From the IMG/VR virus record IMGVR_UViG_2703718868_000001: a stretch of DNA of 6,855 nucleotides. One strand, written 5' to 3'. Shown here piece after piece: positions 1-6,395 of the stretch. How positions within the stretch are numbered: the first letter of the stretch is position 1; every line of letters begins with the position of its first letter. Both the position numbers and the translations under genes were made by a program. Under the pieces are notes generated by a model. The model searched no databases. It saw only the letters and a program-made list of their open reading frames with translations, and was not told the DNA's origin. Source of the DNA: a virus (taxonomy: Duplodnaviria; Heunggongvirae; Uroviricota; Caudoviricetes).

Positions 1-13
1 GGAGGAAATTTTA

Positions 14-775
14 ATGGAAACCGTTTTTGACGCACTGAAAGCAATGGGAAAAGCCAGCTCTGTTGGACTGGCTGAGCGGCTTGATATCAGTCGTGAAGAG
101 GTTCTCAACGAACTGTGGGAACTCAAAAGAAATGGCGTTGTTGATAAAGCGGGTCACATCTGGTTTCTGGCTGGCGAAGGTGAATCCGGGGTAACCGAAG
201 AGCAGCCAGAACAGTCTGAAGTACCGGATGTGCTGACCGGGGAGGTCGAACAAAAAGTTACCGCAGACATGATGATTGAGTTTATCGGTCAGGAGGGGGC
301 TAAAACGTGTGAGGAACTGGCGGATAAGTTCGGTGTTAGCATTCGCAAGGTTGCTTCCACGTTGGCGGTGGTAACCGCAACGGGACGCCTGGCACGCGTA
401 AATCAGAACGGTAAATTTCGTTACTGCATGCCGGGCGATAATTTACCAGCAGAGCCGAAAGCCGTGCCGGTAACGGAAAATGATGGTAAGGCCTTTCCTC
501 AGCCAGCAGGTGTTGCGTTACCAGTACAGGAATCTGCAACACAGGAAGATATTAAAACAGAAACAGTGGCGGACATTGTGCAGTCGTTGCCATCGTTTAC
601 CGAAACGCAAGCAGATGAGCTGATTTTTCTGTCCCTGTGCAGGGCAAACCTGGCGCTGCGCAGGGCGAAAAGTGATGTTCAGAAGTGGGAGCGAGTCTGT
701 GCCGCGCTGCGGGAACTGAACAAACACAGGGATATTCTCCGGGATATTACCGCCACCAGAGAGCTGCTGCGGTGA
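14..775 (+). CDS. hypothetical phage protein with two tandem winged-helix-like DNA-binding modules and a C-terminal helical region
   Basis: ATG at 14 with GGAGG at 1-5 (8-nt spacer); 253-codon ORF ending TGA 773-775. Residues ~1-55 ([52 protein letters not shown]) and ~86-140 ([57 protein letters not shown]) repeat the same helix / small-residue turn / recognition-helix / beta-hairpin pattern, separated by an acidic linker. Fold assignment (FaeA/PapI-like wHTH) is from pattern only. Confidence 0.6.
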
Positions 776-807
776 GTGGCTGGAAGAAGTGGCGCTGGGC
801 GGAAATT

Positions 808-1089
808 ATGATACTCCGGCAGTGTGCGGGAACGATGACAGTCGAAAGCATCGGCAGTCTGATTGGCCGTAGTGGGGCTGCCGTCAGGACGAAAGCGCGG
901 GAACTGGGTATCTGCATGATGTTACGGGGTGATTATCACCAGTCAGCCAAATGTTCACAGCGTGATATTGAGCTGGCGCGGCAACTGCATCAGCGTGGCG
1001 TACCCCGACGGGAAATTGCCGAAAAGTTTGGGATGAAGTTGGGCGCAGTGAATAACTACGTTTATTTCGACAGGAGGGTTCAGGCGTGA
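808..1089 (+). CDS. small putative HTH DNA-binding protein (hypothetical)
   Basis: ORF-track frame 685-1089 overlaps the 3' end of the upstream gene; ATG at 808 (G-rich GGGCGG upstream) is the most plausible start, with GTG 772 (overlapping the upstream TGA) or ATG 837 as alternatives. Product has two HTH-like segments (SIGSLIGRSGAAVRTKARELGI and REIAEKFGMKLGAVNNYV). Stop TGA 1087-1089. Confidence 0.5.
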   Translation: MILRQCAGTMTVESIGSLIGRSGAAVRTKARELGICMMLRGDYHQSAKCSQRDIELARQLHQRGVPRREIAEKFGMKLGAVNNYVYFDRRVQA

Positions 1090-1391
1090 GGGTGAGAATT
1101 TATATCGCCGGTCCGATGACGGGATATGAAAATTTCAACCGTGAGGCGTTTCACAGGGCGGAAGAAGCACTGAAACGGGAAGGGCATACCGTTTTAAACC
1201 CGGCAGTACTTCCGGACGGACTGACACAGCCACACTACATGGATATTTGCATGGCGATGATACGCTGCGTGGATGCGATTTACATGCTGAAAGGCTGGCA
1301 GCGGTCGGCAGGCGCTAAGGCAGAACTGGCACTGGCGGAGAAACTGGGACATGCGGTTATTTTCCAGGAGGCAACCAGTGAGAAAAATTAA
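1086..1391 (+). CDS. DUF4406-like protein (nucleoside 2-deoxyribosyltransferase-like fold)
   Basis: GTG at 1086 overlaps the upstream stop (GTGA) with AGGAGG at 1072-1077 (8-nt spacer). N-terminus MRVRIYIAGPMTGYENFNREAF matches the I-Y-I-A-G-P-M-T-G motif I associate with DUF4406 / deoxyribosyltransferase-like proteins (from memory). 101 aa, stop TAA 1389-1391. Confidence 0.65.
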   Translation: MRVRIYIAGPMTGYENFNREAFHRAEEALKREGHTVLNPAVLPDGLTQPHYMDICMAMIRCVDAIYMLKGWQRSAGAKAELALAEKLGHAVIFQEATSEKN

Positions 1392-1410
1392 TTATCAGAC
1401 GCTACGTGAG
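1365..1410 (+). repeat. copy 1 of a duplicated RBS + start + N-terminal coding module (CAGGAGGCAACCAGTGAG...)
   Basis: The 18-nt string caggaggcaaccagtgag at 1365-1382 is identical to 2328-2345; the next 28 nt match at 20 of 28 positions by manual alignment (38 of 46 overall). It holds the SD (AGGAGG) and GTG start of the first Ea22-like gene. Confidence 0.8.
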
Positions 1411-2028
1411 ATAGCAAAACTGGCAACCCAGGGCGAATGGGTCGCATTCATTTCGCCGGGCACTGATACATATGCGGTGCATACGCCGGGGGATGAACGT
1501 TGCGGAGACATTATCAAATGGCCTGGCTTTGATGACCAGAAAAATGCAGAGAACAACGCAGAATTTATTGCAGCTTTCAACCCTGAAGTAGTACAGGCAC
1601 TGCTGGATGAACGGGAAGCCCAAAGCAAACGTATTGCAGAGCTGGAAGCTAATCTTGTGGCGCTGGCGGCGGAGAATGCACTTGCTCGTAAAGCAGTTCA
1701 GGCATTCTGCGATGTTGTTGGCGACAACACCGAGGTTATCTGCGAGGAGGTTGGGAGAGATGGCGTTCTGGTTATTTTGGAGGCCATGAAGGCAACAGGA
1801 AATATGCCAGCCACCGATGCTTTCCTGTCTGAAGTGCGGGCGCTGGGGGTGGATGCTGCTATAGAAGCTGCAAAAAATCTGGTGGCCCAAGAATATGAGT
1901 ATAAGGATTTCAAAGCGGCGCAGAGTGATTGCTGTATGCACCCTGGTTCAGACCTGATAGGGAAGGTTGAAATGACTGAGTGGTTAGTTGACTTTGCTGC
2001 CCAGCTTCGCAAAGGAGTTCAGTCATGA
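1378..2028 (+). CDS. Ead/Ea22-like family protein (long paralog)
   Basis: GTG at 1378 in frame with ORF 1351-2028, preceded by AGGAGG 1366-1371. N-terminus VRKINYQTLREIAKLATQGEW resembles the conserved N-terminal motif of lambdoid Ead/Ea22-like proteins (from memory); coiled-coil-like middle (EAQSKRIAELEANLVALAAENALARK). Stop TGA 2026-2028. Confidence 0.7.
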   Translation: MRKINYQTLREIAKLATQGEWVAFISPGTDTYAVHTPGDERCGDIIKWPGFDDQKNAENNAEFIAAFNPEVVQALLDEREAQSKRIAELEANLVALAAENALARKAVQAFCDVVGDNTEVICEEVGRDGVLVILEAMKATGNMPATDAFLSEVRALGVDAAIEAAKNLVAQEYEYKDFKAAQSDCCMHPGSDLIGKVEMTEWLVDFAAQLRKGVQS

Positions 2029-2354
2029 GAGCTTCAATTAGTTATGTCGACGATTGCCACCTAAGCGTGCGTGTTGATGAAATTGTGTCATCCGTGCCAA
2101 CTTTTCCGACAAAAAATGCAGCCGTTAATGCAGGCGCGCCATTCGGATGGAGGACGGCAGTTCGTATTGAGCGTCGATTCGAAAACGTTTGGGTGGTAGG
2201 TAAGAAATGCTTCCAAAGCGATCGCTCTGCGGGGCTTAATTTTGAAGCATATCGATTCCCGTTCCTCCGATGGGAGAAAGAGGGCGGGATTACAAAATGC
2301 CCGATTCTTTCCGTGCGCAGATTCAAGCAGGAGGCAACCAGTGAGCAAGATTGA
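2025..2354 (+). CDS. hypothetical protein (109 aa), translationally coupled
   Basis: ATG at 2025 overlaps the upstream stop (ATGA); AAGGAG at 2012-2017 with 7-nt spacer. Several rare codons (AGA, AGG, CGA, CTA). No recognisable motif; the 3' end overlaps the next gene's RBS/start by 14 nt. Confidence 0.5.
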   Translation: MRASISYVDDCHLSVRVDEIVSSVPTFPTKNAAVNAGAPFGWRTAVRIERRFENVWVVGKKCFQSDRSAGLNFEAYRFPFLRWEKEGGITKCPILSVRRFKQEATSEQD

Positions 2355-2373
2355 CTATCAGGCATTGCGTGAG
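2328..2373 (+). repeat. copy 2 of the duplicated RBS + start + N-terminal coding module
   Basis: See copy 1; 2328-2345 is identical to 1365-1382 and holds the SD and GTG start of the second Ea22-like gene. Confidence 0.8.
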
Positions 2374-2685
2374 GCAGCACAAAACTATCGGTCGATGCTG
2401 GCGTGGTATCAGGAGAAACCAGACAGTCCAAACGCTGAGCAGGATTGTGATGCAGCTTTGGCTGCGTTTAAGCGTGAAATCCGTCATCGTGAAGTGGATA
2501 TTATCGCTGATTTGCTGGATGAACTGGAGGAAGCAAAACAGCGTATCGACGAGCAGGAGTCCCGCATAGTGAAGTTACCAGAACCATTCAAGCTGGCTAA
2601 ATCATCAAGTGGATTAACGTACTACTACGCTGATGAGGTCAATGCCGCACTGACTGCTGCTGGTATTCGCATAGAAGGAGAGTGA
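2341..2685 (+). CDS. Ead/Ea22-like family protein (short paralog, N-terminal-domain type)
   Basis: GTG at 2341 preceded by AGGAGG 2329-2334; N-terminus VSKIDYQALREAAQNY parallels the 1378 gene (KINYQTLREIAK). Coiled-coil segment DLLDELEEAKQRIDEQESRIV. Stop TGA 2683-2685. Confidence 0.65.
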   Translation: MSKIDYQALREAAQNYRSMLAWYQEKPDSPNAEQDCDAALAAFKREIRHREVDIIADLLDELEEAKQRIDEQESRIVKLPEPFKLAKSSSGLTYYYADEVNAALTAAGIRIEGE

Positions 2686-2686
2686 G

Positions 2687-3040
2687 ATGACCACTATTAC
2701 CAAAGAGCGACTGCAATGGCTGGCTAACATTTCTGGCCGCGATGACATTGACGATATAGACGGCGGTGAAATTCGTGAGCTGGCGCTTATCGCGCTGGCA
2801 TCGCTGGAAGCGAAGCCTGTAGCTTCATGTATTATTGAAGATGGGGGCATGTGTGTTGACGGGTTCGGTGAGTATGTTGGTCACTCGCTGCCTGATGGAA
2901 CGCACCAGCTTTACGCCGCCCCGCCAGTGCCTAGTAAGTTGCCGCGTGAATACAGAAACGGTTGGCCTCTTGCATATAGTGATTATGCTGAAGGCTGGAA
3001 CGACTGCCGCGAAGCCATGCTTCAGGGAGATAAATCATGA
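2687..3040 (+). CDS. hypothetical phage protein (117 aa)
   Basis: ATG at 2687 one nt after the upstream stop (TGAgATG), AAGGAG at 2675-2680. Product contains LYAAPP and GWNDCREAML motifs that I vaguely associate with lambdoid accessory proteins, but I cannot name the family. Confidence 0.6.
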   Translation: MTTITKERLQWLANISGRDDIDDIDGGEIRELALIALASLEAKPVASCIIEDGGMCVDGFGEYVGHSLPDGTHQLYAAPPVPSKLPREYRNGWPLAYSDYAEGWNDCREAMLQGDKS

Positions 3041-3390
3041 TTAATCGTATCAAGCTGGAGCACATCCTCGAATATGCCAGGCAGCAGAAGCATACTGGTC
3101 AGCATTGTAAAATTCCACCAGGGGATATGGTTGAAATCATGGAGATTGCCATGCGCAAGGCTGGCAATTCTCCGGTAACTCCGGATGGTTGGATAAGCTG
3201 TAGTGAGCGAATGCCGCCAGTTGGTGTTGATGTACTACTGTTTGTGTCCAGCACGGGTGAACAGTTTACAGGTTTTAACCTGGATAATACGGGTGACTTC
3301 CAGTATGCGCAGTGTTTCGGTGCGCCTATCGTGTGTGAAGCCACACACTGGATGCCGCTACCAGAACCGCCGAAGGAGGTGCGCCAATGA
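3037..3390 (+). CDS. DUF551-like phage protein
   Basis: ATG at 3037 overlaps the upstream stop (ATGA), GGGAGA at 3025-3030. C-terminal motif GWISCSERMPP...THWMPLPEPPK matches what I recall of DUF551 proteins (from memory). Stop TGA 3388-3390. Confidence 0.6.
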   Translation: MINRIKLEHILEYARQQKHTGQHCKIPPGDMVEIMEIAMRKAGNSPVTPDGWISCSERMPPVGVDVLLFVSSTGEQFTGFNLDNTGDFQYAQCFGAPIVCEATHWMPLPEPPKEVRQ

Positions 3391-3470
3391 GCTGGCCTGA
3401 GGCCTTCTCAAATGTTGGTATTGCAATGGCGGTAGCATTGGTTGTGTATTCGATTTGCCGCTGGGGATAA
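3387..3470 (+). CDS. 27-aa hydrophobic micro-protein (MSWPEAFSNVGIAMAVALVVYSICRWG), putative single-pass membrane peptide
   Basis: ATG at 3387 overlaps the DUF551 stop (ATGA) with AAGGAGG at 3373-3379 (7-nt spacer); stop TAA 3468-3470 sits just before the intrinsic terminator. Too short for the ORF track; the call rests on RBS quality, coupling and a ~20-residue hydrophobic core. Confidence 0.45.
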   Translation: MSWPEAFSNVGIAMAVALVVYSICRWG

Positions 3471-3471
3471 C

Positions 3472-3502
3472 AAAAACCCCGGATTGATGGTCCGGGGTTT
3501 TT
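3472..3502. terminator. rho-independent terminator, probably bidirectional
   Basis: Perfect 7-bp stem CCCCGGA (3477-3483) / TCCGGGG (3491-3497), 7-nt loop, A5 run upstream (3472-3476) and T5 run downstream (3498-3502). Confidence 0.75.
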
Positions 3503-3691: not shown

Positions 3692-3973
3692 TTACTGAGC
3701 ACCAATAATCCTGAAGATGTAATCCTTGAAGATGAGAGCCAGAGCGGCAGCAACAATAAACCACTGGAGTCGATCAAACTTGGTTTCCAGCTTGTCCAGG
3801 CGCTTATCAACCGATATTAGCTGGTTTTGCAAAGAATTAAAGCGACCATCAATCTCACGACGCAGGTTATCAACGCTTTCCTGTGTTGCCAGGTGTTGCA
3901 TGTTCTGCTGGCGATGGAGTAAAGCATTCAACACATCACTGGTGCTGAACTCAATTTTTTTGTCATCACTCAT
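3692..3973 (-). CDS. 93-aa coiled-coil protein with C-terminal transmembrane anchor (XhlA-like architecture; function unknown)
   Basis: ATG on the minus strand (plus 3971-3973) preceded by AGGAGG (complement of 3979-3984, 5-nt spacer); stop TAA (3692-3694). Product has heptad-like region NLRREIDGRFNSLQNQLISVDKRLDKLETKFDRL then hydrophobic tail WFIVAAALALIFKDYIFRIIG. It is the only convincing minus-strand gene in the window and has its own terminator. Confidence 0.7.
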   Translation of the reverse strand: MSDDKKIEFSTSDVLNALLHRQQNMQHLATQESVDNLRREIDGRFNSLQNQLISVDKRLDKLETKFDRLQWFIVAAALALIFKDYIFRIIGAQ

Positions 3974-4434: not shown

Positions 4435-5484
4435 GTGCGGGTATTACTTCGACCTGTTCTGGTACCGGAACTCGGGATGGTGCTCCTAAAGCCGGGCCGT
4501 GAATCAATGTCAGCATTCCATAACGGCAGAATATTGGTGGAACCGGAACCGAAAAACATGCGCGGTCTGCCGTCCGGAGTCGTTCCTGCCGTTCGACAGC
4601 CGCTGGCAGAGGATAAAACATTACTGCCATTTTTCAGCAACGAACGGGTGATTCGTGCTGCGGGTGGCGCTGGTGCACTGTCTGACTGGTTATTACGTCA
4701 CGTGAAATCCTGCCAGTGGTCACATGGCGATTATCATCACAGCGAAACTGTCATACATCGTTACGGTTCCGGCGCGATGGTGTTGTGCTGGCACTGCGAC
4801 AACCAGCTGCGCGACCAGACATCAGAATCACTCGATCAACTTGCTCAGCAGAATCTGGTTGCCTGGATGACTGACGTTATCCGTCACGCAATAAGCGGCA
4901 TGCAGGAGAGGGAGTTATCGCTGGCCGAATTATCCTGGTGGGCGGCCTGCAATCAGGTGGTGGATGCACTACCTGAGGCAGTAGCGCGTCGTTCGCTGGG
5001 ATTACCGGCGGAAAAAATCCGCTCCGTATACCGTGAGAGTGACATCGTACCGGGAGAACAGACAGCCATCAGCATACTGAAGCAGCGCACAAAAAATATT
5101 GCGCTGCCACTTCACGTCCACCAGCAACAAAATCCACCACAGAAAAAAACGGTTGTCAGTATCGCCGTTGATCCGGAGTCTCCTGAATCGTTCATGAGGC
5201 GGCCTAAACGTCGCCGTTGGGTTAATGAGAAATACACGCGCTGGGTAAAGACACAGCCGTGTGCGTGTTGTGGTAAGCCTGCTGACGATCCGCATCACCT
5301 GATTGGTCATGGTCAGGGGGGAATGGGGACAAAGGCCCACGATATTTTCACGCTACCGTTGTGCCGGGAGCACCACAACGAACTTCATGCAGACCCGCTG
5401 GAGTTTGAGAAAAAGTACGGCTCTCAGATTGAGTTAATTTTTCGTTTTCTTGATCACGCCTTTGCGACTGGCGTGCTCGGGTAA
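4435..5484 (+). CDS. DUF968-family protein with HNH-like Cys/His motifs (YdfU-like)
   Basis: GTG at 4435 with GGAGG at 4426-4430; 349 aa, the length I recall for E. coli K-12 YdfU. C-terminal motif CACCGKPADDPHHLIGHGQGG...LCREHHNELH is the DUF968/HNH-like signature; a second Cys/His cluster (CQWSHGDYHH...CWHCDNQ) lies near residue 95. Confidence 0.8.
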   Translation: MRVLLRPVLVPELGMVLLKPGRESMSAFHNGRILVEPEPKNMRGLPSGVVPAVRQPLAEDKTLLPFFSNERVIRAAGGAGALSDWLLRHVKSCQWSHGDYHHSETVIHRYGSGAMVLCWHCDNQLRDQTSESLDQLAQQNLVAWMTDVIRHAISGMQERELSLAELSWWAACNQVVDALPEAVARRSLGLPAEKIRSVYRESDIVPGEQTAISILKQRTKNIALPLHVHQQQNPPQKKTVVSIAVDPESPESFMRRPKRRRWVNEKYTRWVKTQPCACCGKPADDPHHLIGHGQGGMGTKAHDIFTLPLCREHHNELHADPLEFEKKYGSQIELIFRFLDHAFATGVLG

Positions 5485-5496
5485 AAGAGGTGACTG

Positions 5497-5856
5497 ATGC
5501 TCATAGATTTGGTTTTACCTTACCCGCCGACGGTGAACACTTACTGGCGACGCCGTGGCAGCACATATTTTGTCTCAAAAGCCGGGGAGCGTTATCGCCG
5601 GGCAGTGGCGCTTATTGTTCGCCAGCAGCGACTGAAATTAAGCCTGTCCGGACGGCTGGCAATAAAAATTATTGCAGAACCACCGGATAAGCGCCGCCGT
5701 GACCTGGACAATATTCTGAAAGCGCCGCTGGATGCGCTGACGCATGCGGGAGTGCTTATTGATGACGAGCAGTTTGATGAAATCAATATTGTACGTGGTC
5801 AGCTTGTTCCTGGTGGTCGGTTGGGTGTGAAGATTTACAAAATTGAGAGTGAGTGA
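5497..5856 (+). CDS. rusA: crossover junction endodeoxyribonuclease RusA (Holliday junction resolvase)
   Basis: ATG at 5497 with AAGAGG 5485-5490. Product aligns by eye with E. coli RusA: LPYPPTVNTYWR vs LPWPPSNNRYYR; PDKRRRDLDNILKAPLDALTHAG vs [30 protein letters not shown] vs KGGRLEL. 119 aa. Confidence 0.9.
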   Translation: MLIDLVLPYPPTVNTYWRRRGSTYFVSKAGERYRRAVALIVRQQRLKLSLSGRLAIKIIAEPPDKRRRDLDNILKAPLDALTHAGVLIDDEQFDEINIVRGQLVPGGRLGVKIYKIESE

Positions 5857-5864
5857 GCGTAAAT

Positions 5865-6395
5865 ATGATATATCCGGAAATTACAGGCAAAAGCGGCGAA
5901 CATTTACGCCTGAACACGCTGGAAGCAGTCTGGATCCAGGGGAAATTACGGATGTGGGGGCGGTGGTCGTATATCGGTGGGGGTAAATCCGGAAATATGT
6001 TTAACCGGTTACTGGTTTCGAAAAAGCTGACGAAAACAGCAGTTAATGAGGTTTTACGCAGAATGAAGAAATCCGGGCTGGATAAACCGGAACTTGAGGC
6101 ATTTTTTCGGGATATGACCAGAGGGAAGCAGAAGAGCTGGTTGTCACATTGTACAGACACAGAGGCGTTGATTATTGATCGCGTTATCAGTGAGGTGCTT
6201 GGGGAATATCCCGGGCTAATCAATATTCTCCGGCAAAGGTACGAAGGACGGGGAATGAGTAAGAGAAAAATGGCAGAATGTTTAAATCGTACTCACCCGG
6301 AATGGTGTTTCAGCACATGTGAGAAACGTATTGCAGGTTGGTTAGCCGTGGCTGAACACATGCTTTATGTACCTATGCACGATTCATTTCGATAA
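5865..6395 (+). CDS. late-gene antiterminator Q, QuuD (DLP12)-type, with an N-terminal extension
   Basis: Immediately downstream of rusA (the canonical nin-region position) and upstream of a strong intrinsic terminator. Several segments align by eye with my recollection of QuuD: LRMWGRWSY vs LERWGAWAA; CTDTEALII vs CDDDAMII; RIAGWLAVAEHML vs KAEGIIEGMLMAL. Start at ATG 5865; GTG 5853 overlapping the rusA stop is an alternative. Stop TAA 6393-6395. Confidence 0.65.
   Translation: MIYPEITGKSGEHLRLNTLEAVWIQGKLRMWGRWSYIGGGKSGNMFNRLLVSKKLTKTAVNEVLRRMKKSGLDKPELEAFFRDMTRGKQKSWLSHCTDTEALIIDRVISEVLGEYPGLINILRQRYEGRGMSKRKMAECLNRTHPEWCFSTCEKRIAGWLAVAEHMLYVPMHDSFR

Follow-up and report, generated by a model that had tools for sequence, protein, structure and literature searches.

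Why does one stretch of lambdoid prophage DNA carry the same gene start twice, in front of two Ea22-like genes whose DNA is otherwise dissimilar? The window analyzed here, i.e. the whole 6,855-nucleotide (nt) stretch of IMG/VR record IMGVR_UViG_2703718868_000001, contains a direct repeat, hereafter called the block, at 1365-1419 and 2328-2382. Its two copies open the genes that we call Ea22-A (1378-2028) and Ea22-B (2341-2685), and between these lies an open reading frame encoding 109 amino acids, ORF109 (2025-2354). The reading that we favor, with a probability of about 0.7, is that the repeat is the conserved 5' end of Ead/Ea22 genes at a lambdoid mosaic joint, the neighbors of which are reshuffled by a two-step process. 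The block is present twice because this prophage has two Ea22-family genes in a row, with the unrelated ORF109 inserted between them. As described below, the existence of relatives with an empty site, the reassortment of the flanks, a jump in identity and the insertion of ORF109 indicate that the window is a mosaic joint of a lambdoid accessory region and not a local duplication.

A repeat search of the window returned the block as its only notable family, with 80% identity over 55 nt and a spacing of 963 nt. The first-pass annotation of this DNA, made from the sequence alone, had described a shorter, 46-nt version (1365-1410 and 2328-2373), and counting from the sequence indeed gave 38 identities out of 46 (83%). 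Its statement that the ribosome-binding site and start were identical at 18 of 18 positions held as well. The first 18 nt of the block, CAGGAGGCAACCAGTGAG, are exact in both copies and absent elsewhere in the window, and no match to this 18-mer was found in 200 dinucleotide shuffles. A profile constructed from the block copies of the phage population had just two matches in the window, its two block copies (E = 1e-15 and 4e-19).

Both copies lie on the plus strand and are built alike, from the last 8 codons and the stop of the upstream gene, an AGGAGG motif, 6 nt of spacer, and a GTG that opens an Ead/Ea22 (PF13935) gene, of which about 14 codons are included. The gene upstream of copy 1 (1086-1391, plus strand) encodes a DUF4406 protein resembling nucleoside 2-deoxyribosyltransferases. 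Its last 8 codons (QEATSEKN) lie inside the block, with the stop at 1389-1391; AGGAGG occupies 1366-1371, the spacer is CAACCA, and the GTG at 1378 opens MRKINYQTLREIAK, the first 14 codons of Ea22-A. In copy 2, ORF109 ends in QEATSEQD with its stop at 2352-2354, and AGGAGG and a spacer precede the GTG at 2341 and MSKIDYQALREAAQ, the first 14 codons of Ea22-B. It is the Ile-Asn or Ile-Asp codon pair of the downstream gene that supplies the upstream stop, since ATT AAT or ATT GAC reads TAA or TGA one base earlier. The upstream reading frame enters the block out of frame and stops 8-11 nt past the downstream GTG, from which it follows that the genes are packed and probably translationally coupled. 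The GTG starts of both Ea22 genes are those of the RefSeq annotation of near-identical prophages. The repeat search detected no inverted repeat or hairpin at the block, and no complement of the block was found elsewhere in the window. We also considered an RNA structure or riboswitch at the block, which was rejected because the fold was no better than that of shuffled sequences (z-scores of -0.4 to +1.7) and no Rfam family was found anywhere in the window.

Both genes exceeded the cut-off (27 bits) of the Pfam family Ead_Ea22 (PF13935 / IPR025153), the 216-amino acid Ea22-A with 93.5 bits and the 114-amino acid Ea22-B with 35.0 bits, so that the block does head two Ea22-like genes, as had been proposed. 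Both are encoded on the plus strand. The complete downstream divergence claimed by the first-pass annotation was true of the DNA, in which no similarity was detected beyond the 55-nt block, but not of the proteins, which are 27% identical by BLASTP (E = 2e-4) by virtue of the N-terminus and a LLDExE..RIxExE stretch. The N-termini of Ea22-A and Ea22-B align with that of lambda Ea22, and the LLDE..RI.E.E stretch aligns across all three proteins. The last residues of Ea22-B also align with lambda Ea22, the tail AGIRIEGE corresponding to the lambda end (AGIRI[EK]GE). This tail, which in lambda reads DAGIRIKGE, is also the ending of several unrelated-looking proteins in other loci. Ea22-like genes are therefore conserved at their ends and variable in the middle. 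In the conserved junction behind Ea22-B (2655-2709, plus strand), the tail AGIRIEGE and its stop are accompanied by a GAAGGAG site and by the ATG of the next gene at 2687.

Ea22-A is composite, as it consists of the shared block, a center that is alignable at 80-88% in other phages to about 1617-1678, a patch at 1807-1853, and a tail ending in ..AAQLRKGVQS. The conserved patch, which includes NMPATDAFLSEVRALG, opens a C-terminal part that is common to CUS-3 hkaH and to proteins annotated as 'eae-like', and many alignments start or stop there. Of note, the N-terminus of Ea22-A matches several PHROG profiles internally (phrog_250 from position 72, phrog_14548 from 200 and phrog_18739 from 199), which suggests fused gene calls or true fusions of an upstream gene with Ea22 in some phages.

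ORF109 had been described as belonging to no recognizable family. This was correct for Pfam and NCBIfam, where no match was found, but a profile search assigned the protein to PHROG 16670 (E = 2e-73), a family without assigned function. Its homologues form 20 sequence clusters, the named ones all being from Enterobacteriaceae, and its AlphaFold model is of moderate quality (predicted local distance difference test score of 76, with one of five models above 60). The ATG of ORF109 overlaps the stop of Ea22-A (ATGA), and its own stop lies 11-14 nt inside Ea22-B. The conserved junction before ORF109 (2002-2027, plus strand) comprises the upstream tail QLRKGVQS with its stop, an AAAGGAG site and the ATG. 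In 59 fetched loci, we observed an uninterrupted joint, CTTCGCAAAGGAG directly followed by GCAACCAGTGAG, which corresponds to the window sequence minus 2018-2334 and falls within the AGGAG core of the two ribosome-binding sites. ORF109 therefore represents a 317-nt insertion on the plus strand (2018-2334), bounded by the AGGAG cores at 2013-2017 and 2330-2334. All six IMG/VR loci encoding ORF109 have an Ea22-like gene downstream, and all six have a gene ending in ..LRKG.. upstream.

A larger unit is also subject to presence and absence. The 963-bp segment between the block copies (1383-2345, the phase being arbitrary) is missing where DUF4406 directly joins Ea22-B. Three relatives (L029, L110 and L242) align to window positions 1-1410 (79%) and 2328-3470 (98.8%) with a 46-nt overlap in the subject, which means that they have a single block and lack the 963-bp unit. 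When a synthetic DUF4406/Ea22-B junction was used as a query, a contiguous match at about 96% was obtained in at least 9 complete Escherichia coli genomes. In L029, 9 of the 14 mismatches to window positions 2328-3470 fall within 2346-2390 and only 1 within the next 1043 nt. From left to right, its identity to the window is thus about 91% for DUF4406, 100% for the 18-mer, 80% for the block's coding portion and 99.9% thereafter, so that a shoulder of lower identity flanks a near-identical mosaic. In the relatives closest to the left half (L038 and others), identity is 99.4% up to 1853, after which another Ea22-A tail follows and then, directly, another block. Either the block or a ribosome-binding core delimits the presence/absence alleles, and a recent exchange terminates at the block.

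The repeat is not confined to this genome. The exact 18-mer was found in 111 IMG/VR phage contigs, only one of which has two copies 963 nt apart. Clustering of the flanks at 80% identity (250 nt upstream and 300 nt downstream, the latter counted from +60) grouped the upstream sequences into 10 clusters and the downstream ones into 30, which occur in 40 combinations, including several 2 x 2 sets in which all four combinations occur (e.g. U1/U2 with D2/D16). Five different upstream genes are followed by sequence of the Ea22-A type, ORF109 precedes two different Ea22 types, and DUF4406 precedes 14 different downstream types. The 18-mer-type region also precedes some genes without the Ea22 N-terminal motif, one of which ends in the Ea22-type tail AGIRIKGE. 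On the right side of the block, conservation fades by about +55. The positions of the breaks around the block vary (0, +18, +41 and +45-62).

As these 111 contigs had been picked by the 18-mer itself, the test was repeated with two other selections. The first comprised 80 loci picked by the DUF4406 protein alone. The sequence CAGGAG after ..IF was kept in all 80; the exact 18-mer was present in 29, and in the others different initiation regions and different genes follow. Homology to the window stopped within 1360-1419 in 70 of the 80 loci. In the comparison that the first-pass annotation had suggested, breakpoints across relatives therefore map to the block, this being apparent from the 40 flank combinations, the 70 of 80 homology ends, the empty relatives and the identity jump in L029.

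The second selection relied only on the coding part of the block, ATTRAYTAYCAGGCAYTGCGTG. The initiation regions of these loci fall into discrete types. T1, AGGAGGCAACCAGTG, the type of the window, accounts for 63 instances and 19 upstream clusters. The three others, T2 (15 instances), T4 (7) and T3, which is lambda's own (7), together represent 29 instances, each type with one upstream cluster. T1 is thus unusually promiscuous on its upstream side. At least two same-strand block copies were present in 51 of 283 loci, most commonly about 561 nt apart. Upstream reading frames enter the block 135 and 128 times in the two frames that meet a stop and once in the frame that would create a fusion with Ea22, and this near-absence of the fusion frame makes selection visible in the reading frames. 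A single entry frame for all upstream genes, which would have argued for one ancestral joint, was rejected, since the two stop-meeting frames (b and c) are nearly equally used.

Two further observations concern breaks at the block. In several IMG/VR loci (L002, L005, L010, L013, L016, L022 and others), DUF4406 is immediately followed by a 16-codon truncated Ea22 start, MSEINYQELRQVKEKA and a stop, and then by unrelated AT-rich DNA; this looks like the scar of a deletion or replacement broken inside the block. Another break, at +41, was seen in L032. A scan for a 17-mer in one genome per species gave 65 matches, two of them in Escherichia, compared with about 69 expected by chance according to our own estimate (2 x 596e9 / 4^17), and is taxonomically uninformative.

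The process that we favor would involve two steps. In the first, each new upstream neighbor would arise from a rare join at the ribosome-binding site, illegitimate or based on microhomology, and selection would follow. In the second, homologous or homeologous crossovers in the 46-55-nt block, mediated by phage Rad52-type recombinases or RecA, would reshuffle the left and right partners, and units between direct copies of the block could be gained or lost. Both steps are called for, because crossovers in the block only reshuffle existing neighbors, and new adjacencies between an upstream gene and the block need illegitimate or microhomology joining. Lambdoid recombinases are known to recombine short, diverged sequences (PMC2327257, PMC3945230), and a shoulder of lower identity beside a near-identical mosaic is the trace of homeologous recombination according to the criterion of PMC2327257. 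The first-pass annotation had proposed a cassette exchange in which a conserved 5' homology arm permits the swapping of C-terminal domains. The flanks do reassort, but whole genes and upstream genes are exchanged, not C-terminal domains alone. The homology arm is consistent with the 80% block followed by 99.9% identity in L029, but not with those breaks that occur at AGGAGG or after GTGAG with no arm. We infer that recombination takes place within the block and that the block thereby permits exchange, as we do for translational coupling. The earlier interpretation is thus partly supported: it had the right idea but drew it too narrowly, and its mechanism can be regarded only as putative.

Several findings weigh against a role of the block in recombination. 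Exact identity between the two copies of the window extends over no more than 18 nt, the remainder being about 71% identical, and the minimal homology quoted for Red and RecA is about 30 bp (PMC2327257). Exchange between these two copies should therefore be inefficient, and exchange between block copies of different phages, which can be near-identical over the full block, is more plausible than deletion within this prophage. In many cases, the joint coincides with the AGGAGG core or directly follows GTGAG and lacks a shoulder of similarity, which also fits illegitimate joining plus selection. Variation in the block is greater at third codon positions than at first and second ones, indicating that its coding part is conserved as protein and not as DNA. 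The closest complete prophage has a RecE-like exonuclease and no annotated RecT. Finally, IMG/VR contigs are redundant and were partly picked by the block itself, so that the counts given above do not represent independent events.

We considered the possibility that the block is conserved purely for function, as an efficient initiation region with its N-terminal peptide, all joints resulting from illegitimate recombination and selection (the Hendrix model) and the block never serving as a recombination substrate. The left edge of the block is indeed sharp. It lies at the ribosome-binding site (C/A before AGGAGG) with no upstream shoulder, and 32 of the 45 pairs of upstream clusters share no further base, which equals the chance expectation. 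The joints inside the 5-nt AGGAG core, the relaxed third positions, the distribution of the entry frames, which resembles selection on function, and the unstructured RNA, which suits an initiation site, point in the same direction. Yet, function alone does not require that the identical 6-nt spacer and GTGAG precede unrelated genes, nor does it account for ribosome-binding types that are discrete alleles and form no continuum. Furthermore, the 80% shoulder of L029 is restricted to the block and stands beside a kilobase at 99.9%, filled and empty alleles overlap by exactly one block, and homology-dependent exchange dominates in experiments with lambdoid phages (PMC3945230). We therefore regard this explanation as unlikely, and retain the two-step process as the better account of the joint.

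Alternatively, the block might be a recognition site, either for an integron-like site-specific recombinase or a homing endonuclease, or for a regulator or small RNA that governs the genes carrying this initiation region. The same 17-18 nt, with a spacer that has no obvious need to be conserved, are found before unrelated genes, and some of the matches have an annotated HNH endonuclease gene in the vicinity of Ea22-like genes. If the block were such a site, breaks should occur at a single cleavage point, but their positions vary as indicated above. No recombinase or endonuclease gene adjoins the block in the window or in the closest relatives, and the absence of an inverted repeat or hairpin at the block, and of an Rfam family or a complementary sequence in the window, also argues against this explanation, which we consider very improbable. 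The integron-like, site-specific version was rejected, as there is neither inverted repeat nor hairpin and the only integrase is that of the prophage, several kb away. As to the view that the two genes are ordinary paralogs, arisen by local tandem duplication, diverged in place and vertically inherited, the common Pfam family, the tandem arrangement on one strand and the persisting weak protein similarity would fit, but it is contradicted, to the point of being scarcely tenable, by the lack of DNA similarity outside the 55 nt, by the occurrence of 96-99% relatives of each gene in other phages, where the context differs and the partner is missing, by the presence of an unrelated gene between the copies and by the rarity of the arrangement, found in only 4 of 5426 complete E. 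coli genomes.

The window is a segment of a lambdoid E. coli prophage of the Rac/Stx-like type, piecewise 99.7-100% identical to prophages of strains FHI_NMBU_11 and 04-00955. In these prophages, the left side comprises an integrase, the RecE-like exonuclease, kilR, repressors of the cI/cro type and replication protein P, and the right side a methyltransferase and tRNA genes. Within the window, all on the plus strand, DUF1627 (14-775) and a small DNA-binding protein ending at 1089 precede the DUF4406 gene. Ea22-B is followed by a gene without assigned function (2687-3040), a DUF551 gene (3037-3390), DUF968 (4435-5484), RusA (5497-5856) and a DUF1133/Q-like gene (5865-6395). Both Ea22 genes thus sit after replication protein P, DUF1627 and DUF4406, and before DUF968, RusA and the Q-like gene. 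PADLOC, applied to eight genes, returned no defense or anti-defense match.

Other joints were observed in this gene array. The start of DUF4406 (1080-1089) overlaps the upstream stop as GTGA and is a recurrent homology boundary, at which the alignment begins in 27 of the loci selected by DUF4406; this suggests that joints at initiation regions are general in the array. A patch of about 58 nt (3158-3216), where the DUF551 domain begins, is a recurrent feature of the 3219 E. coli records that match window positions 1000-3500. Many of the weaker matches listed for that region consist of this patch alone, and BLAST pieces repeatedly end at 3215/3216. In the gene at 3037-3390, which is variable in its N-terminal half and conserved in its DUF551 half, this represents another mosaic joint, here an intragenic one. 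On the minus strand, an orphan reading frame of 93 amino acids (3692-3973) has a coiled-coil-like sequence, a hydrophobic C-terminus and its own terminator-like site (3687-3670), and belongs to no Pfam, PHROG or PADLOC family. Its slot is occupied by a RelE/ParD pair or a Hok toxin in related prophages, and these differing occupants indicate a variable 'moron' slot.

Ea22 genes of lambda and Stx phages are known mosaics, in which the N-terminus and a coiled coil are shared and the C-terminal domains, DUF551 among them, vary (PMC10834534). The genes described here belong to the same Pfam/InterPro family and share with them the N-terminal segment M-S-x-I-N/D-x-Q-A-L-R-E-A-A, followed, as judged from the sequences, by what is probably a coiled-coil-type stretch and then by seemingly unrelated C-terminal parts. 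The 5' coding DNA of lambda ea22 is homologous to the block and alignable with it, whereas the ribosome-binding region differs. Lambda ea22, to which a pro-lysogenic activity is ascribed, lies between exo and xis in the pL operon, while the genes of the window are downstream of P, DUF1627 and DUF4406 and, unlike in lambda, form a tandem. The lambda-type initiation region has a single upstream context, compared with 19 for that of the window.

The notion that short conserved flanking or boundary sequences serve as sites of lambdoid exchange is credited, in PMC2327257 and PMC3945230, to Clark et al. 2001 (HK620). The block resembles such sequences in being short, conserved at a gene boundary, common to a subset of phages and surrounded by unrelated DNA on both sides, and in showing the shoulder of about 80% beside a near-identical mosaic (L029). 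It differs from them in being partly coding and only 46-55 nt long, compared with several hundred bp for the lambdoid substrates that were tested experimentally. In addition, some joints of the window type need no homology, unlike homeologous recombination by Red/RecT/Erf. As in coupled, overlapping early genes of phages, a strong Shine-Dalgarno sequence lies inside the upstream coding sequence and the stop just past the downstream start, and neighboring junctions of the window show ATGA and GTGA overlaps; in contrast to such early genes, the same initiation region serves many upstream genes in two frames. The resemblance to integron cassettes, which are likewise small promoterless genes in an array with a recurring short boundary sequence and single-cassette presence/absence polymorphism, is superficial, as there is no attC-like hairpin, no adjoining integrase and no fixed break point.

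The repeat is therefore real and far beyond chance, and the phenomenon that it reflects is ordinary for lambdoid accessory regions. Ea22 mosaicism (PMC10834534) and conserved boundary sequences in lambdoid phages were already known, and the locus does not represent a new kind of system. What the present case adds is a position downstream of the replication genes, a tandem with a gene inserted in it, and the promiscuity of one 17-18-nt initiation region. The locus provides a clean, countable example of accessory-gene shuffling in E. coli and Stx-type prophages, and mosaicism driven by homology could be tested experimentally on it. It is also of use to annotators, since it accounts for the QEATSE.. 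and ..GGNQ endings that recur on small, unrelated proteins, as well as for truncated Ea22 remnants and fused gene calls. A bolder and rather doubtful idea is that the AGGAGGCAACCAGTGAG initiation region and the N-terminal patch form a selected, portable docking end that actively raises the turnover of lambdoid accessory genes. Such an end would give a ribosome-binding site and a start to whatever follows, and stops in the two non-fusion frames to whatever precedes, with enough homology for phage recombinases. If this were the case, the locus would be a natural test bed for the respective contributions of homologous and illegitimate recombination to phage mosaicism, and the other three initiation types, which have just one upstream context each, would serve as its internal controls.

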